A stretch of 64,000 nucleotides of DNA from NCBI RefSeq assembly GCF_048403405.1, contig NZ_CP183129.1, one strand, 5' to 3'. The notes under the pieces are model-generated. The model was not told where the DNA came from, did no database searches, and saw nothing but the letters and a program-made list of their open reading frames with translations. The DNA comes from Escherichia coli. Lineage in GTDB: Bacteria > Pseudomonadota > Gammaproteobacteria > Enterobacterales > Enterobacteriaceae. This document shows positions 42,775 through 42,823 of the stretch, piece by piece; the stretch's first letter is position 1, and the number at the start of each line of letters is the position of its first letter. The position numbers and the translations under genes were made by a program.

Positions 42775-42782
42775 CAGGCGTA

Positions 42783-42814
42783 AAAAAGCCGGGGAATGAT
42801 CCCCGGCTTTTTTA
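42783..42814. terminator. Bidirectional rho-independent terminator between pdeA and nupC
   Basis: aaaaaagccgggg aatgat ccccggctttttt. Confidence 0.75.
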
Positions 42815-42823
42815 TGTATGGTT

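Follow-up and report, generated by a model that had tools for sequence, protein, structure and literature searches.

An intact predicted two-way terminator with an unoccupied IS186 target between pdeA and nupC of Escherichia coli

The converging genes pdeA (yfeA) and nupC encode a c-di-GMP phosphodiesterase and a nucleoside:H+ symporter, respectively. In the 64-kb stretch of E. coli DNA analysed in our study (in the following called the window) they are separated by a spacer of exactly 49 bp, which lies between the TAA stop codon of pdeA (42772-42774, + strand) and the stop codon of nupC (42824-42826, - strand). The genes at this locus were identified with the help of the annotation of TUM14771, a near-identical genome. 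The features of the locus and the insertion sequences found upstream of it are listed in Table 1.

Table 1. Features of the pdeA-nupC locus and the insertion sequences at yfeD, in window coordinates
Feature	Position	Strand	Basis
tnpA of an IS609-family element (IS200/IS605), degenerate	36205-36630	-	TUM14771 annotation; Pfam Y1_Tnp
tnpB of an IS609-family element, intact	36638-37846	+	TUM14771 annotation; Pfam OrfB_IS605 and Cas12f1-like_TNB
IS4321 (IS110 family, 1326 bp) in yfeD	38171-39496	+	Extra sequence relative to TUM14771; ORF domains; RefSeq annotation of AR_0372
pdeA (yfeA), c-di-GMP phosphodiesterase gene	40584-42774	+	Coordinates transferred from the TUM14771 annotation via alignment
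pdeA-nupC intergenic spacer	42775-42823	.	Read from the sequence, bounded by the stop codons of both ORFs
Symmetric GC-rich hairpin in the form of a two-way intrinsic terminator	42778-42817	.	Folding; terminator scan
GGGGAATGATCCCC, unoccupied match to the preferred IS186 target GGGG(N6/N7)CCCC	42791-42804	.	Motif scan; consensus from PMC6925257
GGGAATGATCCC (12 bp), duplicated around IS186 in K-12 as GGGAATTATCCC	42792-42803	.	Overlapping BLAST segments; aligned junctions
nupC, nucleoside:H+ symporter gene	42824-44026	-	TUM14771 and K-12 annotations; ORF list

Almost the whole spacer (40 of the 49 bases) is occupied by a hairpin of 18 pairs, which begins 3 bp beyond the stop of pdeA and 6 bp beyond the stop of nupC. 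Its GC core of 7 bp is formed by GCCGGGG (42788-42794) and CCCCGGC (42801-42807). A run of six A (42782-42787) flanks the core on the 5' side and a run of six T (42808-42813) on the 3' side. Thereby a U-tract follows the stem 3' on both strands, as T6 for the + strand and as the A6 run, which reads T6, for the - strand. Folding of the RNA yielded -31.1 kcal/mol for the + strand (z -6.1) and -25.8 kcal/mol for the - strand (z -6.5), and in both cases none of 200 shuffled sequences was as good. Terminator-like sites were called on both strands by a pattern scan. On the - strand the scan reported only a sub-stem of 5 pairs and not the full hairpin, which counts against a two-way terminator.

The hairpin has every sequence feature of an intrinsic terminator shared by pdeA and nupC, namely a stable GC-rich stem-loop, U-tracts on both strands and a position directly after converging stop codons. 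The A-run and the T-run would provide the transcripts of both genes with a U-tract, and we infer from these features that the predicted terminator would act in both directions. The same arrangement, a single GC-rich hairpin with an A-tract and a T-tract between converging stops, is known from bidirectional intrinsic terminators between converging bacterial genes, and compared to these there is nothing unusual in the hairpin predicted here. The initial annotation had described the spacer as 49 bp consisting of one bidirectional terminator. The length proved to be exact, and the extent of the hairpin and the terminator-like sites on both strands are in agreement with this description as a prediction.

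The spacer exists in a longer form, too. In E. coli N96 (positions 1008-1128 of the extracted locus L022) two 26-bp copies covering the hairpin core, equivalent to window positions 42786-42811, flank one REP element. In Escherichia whittamii (positions 9445-9245 of locus L019, minus strand) two such copies flank two REP elements. In both genomes the copy on the pdeA side keeps the A-run and the copy on the nupC side keeps the T-run. Judged from these arrangements, the single hairpin of 49 bp could have arisen when two such copies collapsed into one, or, conversely, the long form could have expanded from the single hairpin.

These duplicated core copies around one or two REP elements suggest that the hairpin can duplicate or recombine as a unit. 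The main role of the hairpin might thus not be termination, and it could be, e.g., part of a repeated palindromic element. We regard this as very unlikely, as the hairpin is located a few bases past both converging stops and combines a canonical GC stem with a U-tract on either strand. Furthermore, the window contains a single copy of its core motif GGGG-N6-CCCC, and no Rfam family matched the spacer in a search of positions 33000-46000, which returned six tRNAs only.

The top of the stem of the predicted terminator coincides with a target for the insertion sequence IS186. In a passage of PMC6925257 the preferred IS186 target is given as 5'-GGGG(N6/N7)CCCC and attributed to Chong 1985 and SaiSree 2001. 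The sequence GGGGAATGATCCCC is the sole occurrence of GGGG(N6/7)CCCC on either strand of the window. About 0.6 (N6) and 0.75 (N7) occurrences are expected by chance according to shuffled sequences, so that finding the motif once is statistically unremarkable. It is simply by coincidence that the GC-rich sequence at the tip of the stem makes an ideal target for IS186. The target is unoccupied: a blastn search of the whole 64 kb with the K-12 IS186 as query (word size 11) gave no match to IS186 or its terminal inverted repeats. Together with the 49-bp spacer, this bears out the starting observation that no IS186 is present between pdeA and nupC of this strain. A full-text literature search found no paper treating IS186 together with nupC.

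In E. coli K-12 MG1655 (NC_000913.3) this position is occupied by IS186C (2514273-2515617), which contains insL3 (b2394) and is located between nupC (b2393) and pdeA (b2395). The initial annotation had stated that K-12 carries an IS186 copy at this place, and the RefSeq record confirms it. We aligned the window to the locus of a K-12 MG1655 derivative (L001) using BLAST. Window positions 40141-42803 correspond to 1-2663 of the K-12 derivative locus and window positions 42792-47324 to 4001-8532. The extra sequence in K-12 is an IS186 of 1337 bp (2664-4000 of the same locus) between two copies of the 12-bp direct repeat GGGAATTATCCC; IS186 is thus present in K-12 and missing from the window across the aligned interval. 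The true target duplication may be 10-12 bp, with the outermost repeat bases equally assignable to the ends of the element. The K-12 insertion lies in the uppermost part of the stem and divides the hairpin.

IS186C of MG1655 hence lies in the same locus and in the same hairpin, and its duplicated 12 bp are the bases at 42792-42803 of the window. In contrast to MG1655, the target in the window is unoccupied and the allele is a different one, with 3 differences in the 49 spacer positions (window/K-12: G/A at 42788, G/T at 42798 and T/C at 42823). Across the flanking 2.7-4.5 kb the divergence between the window and K-12 amounts to about 1.7-1.8%.

The occupancy of the site was surveyed in 5,426 complete E. 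coli genomes. An uninterrupted pdeA-nupC junction was detected in 4,460 of them (82%). IS186 was found in the K-12 orientation in 473 genomes with the K-12 query and in 470 with a strict 240-bp junction query. In the opposite orientation it was found in 466 genomes with a synthetic query containing the reversed element and in 464 with the strict junction query. Many of the matches to the reversed query had 100% identity, including E. coli C, ATCC 8739, ML35 and WG5. In both orientations a sequence-identical IS186 is inserted at exactly the same site with the same 12-bp duplication. The use of this site by IS186 is therefore confirmed by the duplication in K-12 as well as by about 935 occupied genomes in two orientations. 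Other events at the junction were seen in about 25-30 genomes, e.g. the REP-containing expansion of N96; in one genome the match ends inside pdeA.

A sample of 60 genomes with the K-12 orientation consisted mostly of laboratory K-12 derivatives (MG1655, W3110, DH5alpha, C600, J53, MC4100, JM109), together with some larger genomes from cattle, poultry, seawater and people. The sample with the opposite orientation comprised nearly exclusively isolates from people, animals, food or wastewater; ETEC1732 was checked directly.

The occupied junctions are very uniform. Identity to the query composed of the K-12 flank and the IS end was at least 99% in 469 of 470 and in 462 of 464 genomes, respectively, so that the site is almost never occupied outside the K-12-like haplotype (no more than 3 genomes with less than 99% identity). 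Judged from these flanks, occupancy belongs essentially to one K-12-like flanking haplotype with about 935 genomes. Since nearly all occupied sites are on one haplotype, a few old inherited insertions fit the data and not frequent new ones. For the same reason we rejected an often-hit hot spot as the main cause of the occupancy of about 17%. The perfect-consensus site is a usable IS186 target, not a hot spot that is often hit in nature.

IS186 insertions in opposite orientations are also known from one position of the lon promoter (PMC3045373). The lon site and the pdeA-nupC site have the GGGG(N6/N7)CCCC target, a fixed insertion position and the use of either orientation in common. They differ in that the lon site is repeatedly used in laboratory selections, whereas nearly all occupied copies at the pdeA-nupC site are on one flanking haplotype. 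That identical IS186 copies with the same duplication are found in both orientations is thus mildly curious, with a precedent at lon. It is conceivable, albeit rather doubtful, that the two orientations reflect a flip in place by recombination between the terminal inverted repeats instead of two independent insertions, and that the splitting of the terminator might alter read-through of nupC and pdeA in K-12 compared to most E. coli.

The empty site is common and most likely ancestral, with IS186C being derived in K-12 and its relatives. This conclusion is based on the large majority of uninterrupted junctions, on the presence of the empty site in genomes with diverged haplotypes, among them O157:H7, O111 and ST131 genomes, on TUM14771, whose site is likewise empty and which shares 99.98-99.99% identity with the window across about 41 kb, and on the outgroup E. 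whittamii, which lacks IS186 between pdeA and nupC. A scan of species representatives for the hairpin AARCCGGGGAATNATCCCCGGYTT yielded E. whittamii as the one relevant outgroup, besides 15 matches in unrelated bacteria. The outgroup evidence thus comprises a single species with a spacer of different form (two hairpins and two REP elements), and other Escherichia species, which have no exact match to the hairpin pattern, give no information on the ancestral state.

Empty sites were found despite flanks 99.9-100% identical to K-12 as well, e.g. in PSJ-36 and 03_3503, showing that occupied and empty sites coexist on one haplotype. IS186 might accordingly have been present in the lineage of the window once and might have been lost by a precise excision restoring the single 12-bp copy. 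For the window this is highly improbable: with its spacer differences and its flank divergence from K-12 it does not belong to the haplotype that carries almost all occupied sites, most of the genomes surveyed are empty at this position, and its sequence contains no footprint of an excision. We infer that the site in the window has been empty throughout and did not lose an earlier IS186 by precise excision.

Alternatively, the absence of IS186 could be an artefact, a copy having been collapsed out of the source assembly. An unmatched additional G in a homopolymer of pdeA (see below) hints at small assembly errors; no other support for a collapse was found. The junction is a clean target present in one copy, lacks any fragment of an IS end, shows 100% identity to the independent complete genome TUM14771 across 1,049 bp and has the same structure in thousands of genomes, leaving this possibility with a practically negligible probability. 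Both precise excision and assembly collapse were rejected as unlikely.

The preferred reading, to which we assign a probability of roughly 93%, is that the spacer contains an intact two-way terminator shared by both genes, whose stem top is a perfect IS186 target, and that IS186 inserted here in the K-12-like group and never hit the site in the window. In K-12 and strains with near-identical flanks, IS186 inserted into the stem top and duplicated about 12 bp. The insertion thereby split the hairpin and moved pdeA and nupC about 1.35 kb apart.

The locus is an ordinary, already annotated polymorphism, in which an intact shared predicted terminator doubles as an unoccupied IS186 target. The empty site says little about this strain in particular. 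It is rather the IS186C of K-12 that represents a lineage-specific insertion into a shared predicted terminator, while most E. coli keep the intact hairpin. K-12 is unrepresentative at the pdeA-nupC junction, and its transcript-end and regulatory data for this junction should therefore not be transferred to other strains; with the hairpin divided by the insertion, K-12 provides no usable transcript-end data for it. Among strains with the K-12-like haplotype at this locus, whether IS186 is present here and in which orientation could be used as a simple marker of lineage.

Two different insertion sequences are located upstream at yfeD, as stated in the initial annotation. The remnant of an IS609-family element (36205-37846) lies beside this gene, between gltX and yfeD. 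Its tnpB encodes a protein of 402 aa belonging to an RNA-guided nuclease family. IS4321 is inserted inside yfeD and divides the gene into two parts (37886-38170 and 39497-39604). The IS4321 ORF encodes 334 aa and matches DEDD_Tnp_IS110 and Transposase_20, and the same element is annotated as IS4321 by RefSeq in AR_0372. The same junction of yfeD and IS4321 occurs in 171 complete genomes; one of these, AR_0372, is without the IS609 element.

The target of IS4321 in yfeD straddles TTTTCCGTTTTC, which matches the reverse complement of GAAAACGGAAAA at 12 of 12 positions. We take GAAAACGGAAAA to be part of the terminal inverted repeat of Tn21, which IS4321 reportedly targets. The site in yfeD looks like a chromosomal mimic of this target.

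From the insertion sequences at yfeD and the lack of IS186, a distinct insertion-sequence complement of the strain had been concluded. The facts underlying this claim, i.e. the IS186 of K-12 and the elements at yfeD, are correct. The absence of IS186 is not distinctive, being shared with the 4,460 of 5,426 genomes with an uninterrupted junction and with E. whittamii. Moreover, the window covers 64 kb, so that the insertion-sequence complement of the whole genome cannot be described from it.

The pdeA gene of the window is broken by one additional G at position 41910. A run of six G (41905-41910) is present instead of the five G of TUM14771, and the ORF list shows pdeA split into two frames (40524-41918 and 41893-42774). 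None of the 5,426 complete E. coli genomes contained an exact match to the 61-mer around the additional G. The G represents a private frameshift or, alternatively, a sequencing error in the homopolymer.

Further differences were observed in the neighbourhood. In the region from yfeR to the lysV-valXYU tRNA cluster (about 33555-34020) the xapABR-yfeN block is absent, as judged from the aligned TUM14771 annotation, and a small FlxA-like gene adjoins yfeR at this place. In K-12 the block presumably adjoins the lysV-valXYU tRNA cluster. AR_0372 has xapA, xapB and xapR beside the tRNA cluster. In the T-arm of the first tRNA-Ala gene (40186-40258) the window has a C at position 40247 compared to an A in TUM14771; the C agrees with the second tRNA-Ala copy (40301-40381) and with both copies of K-12.
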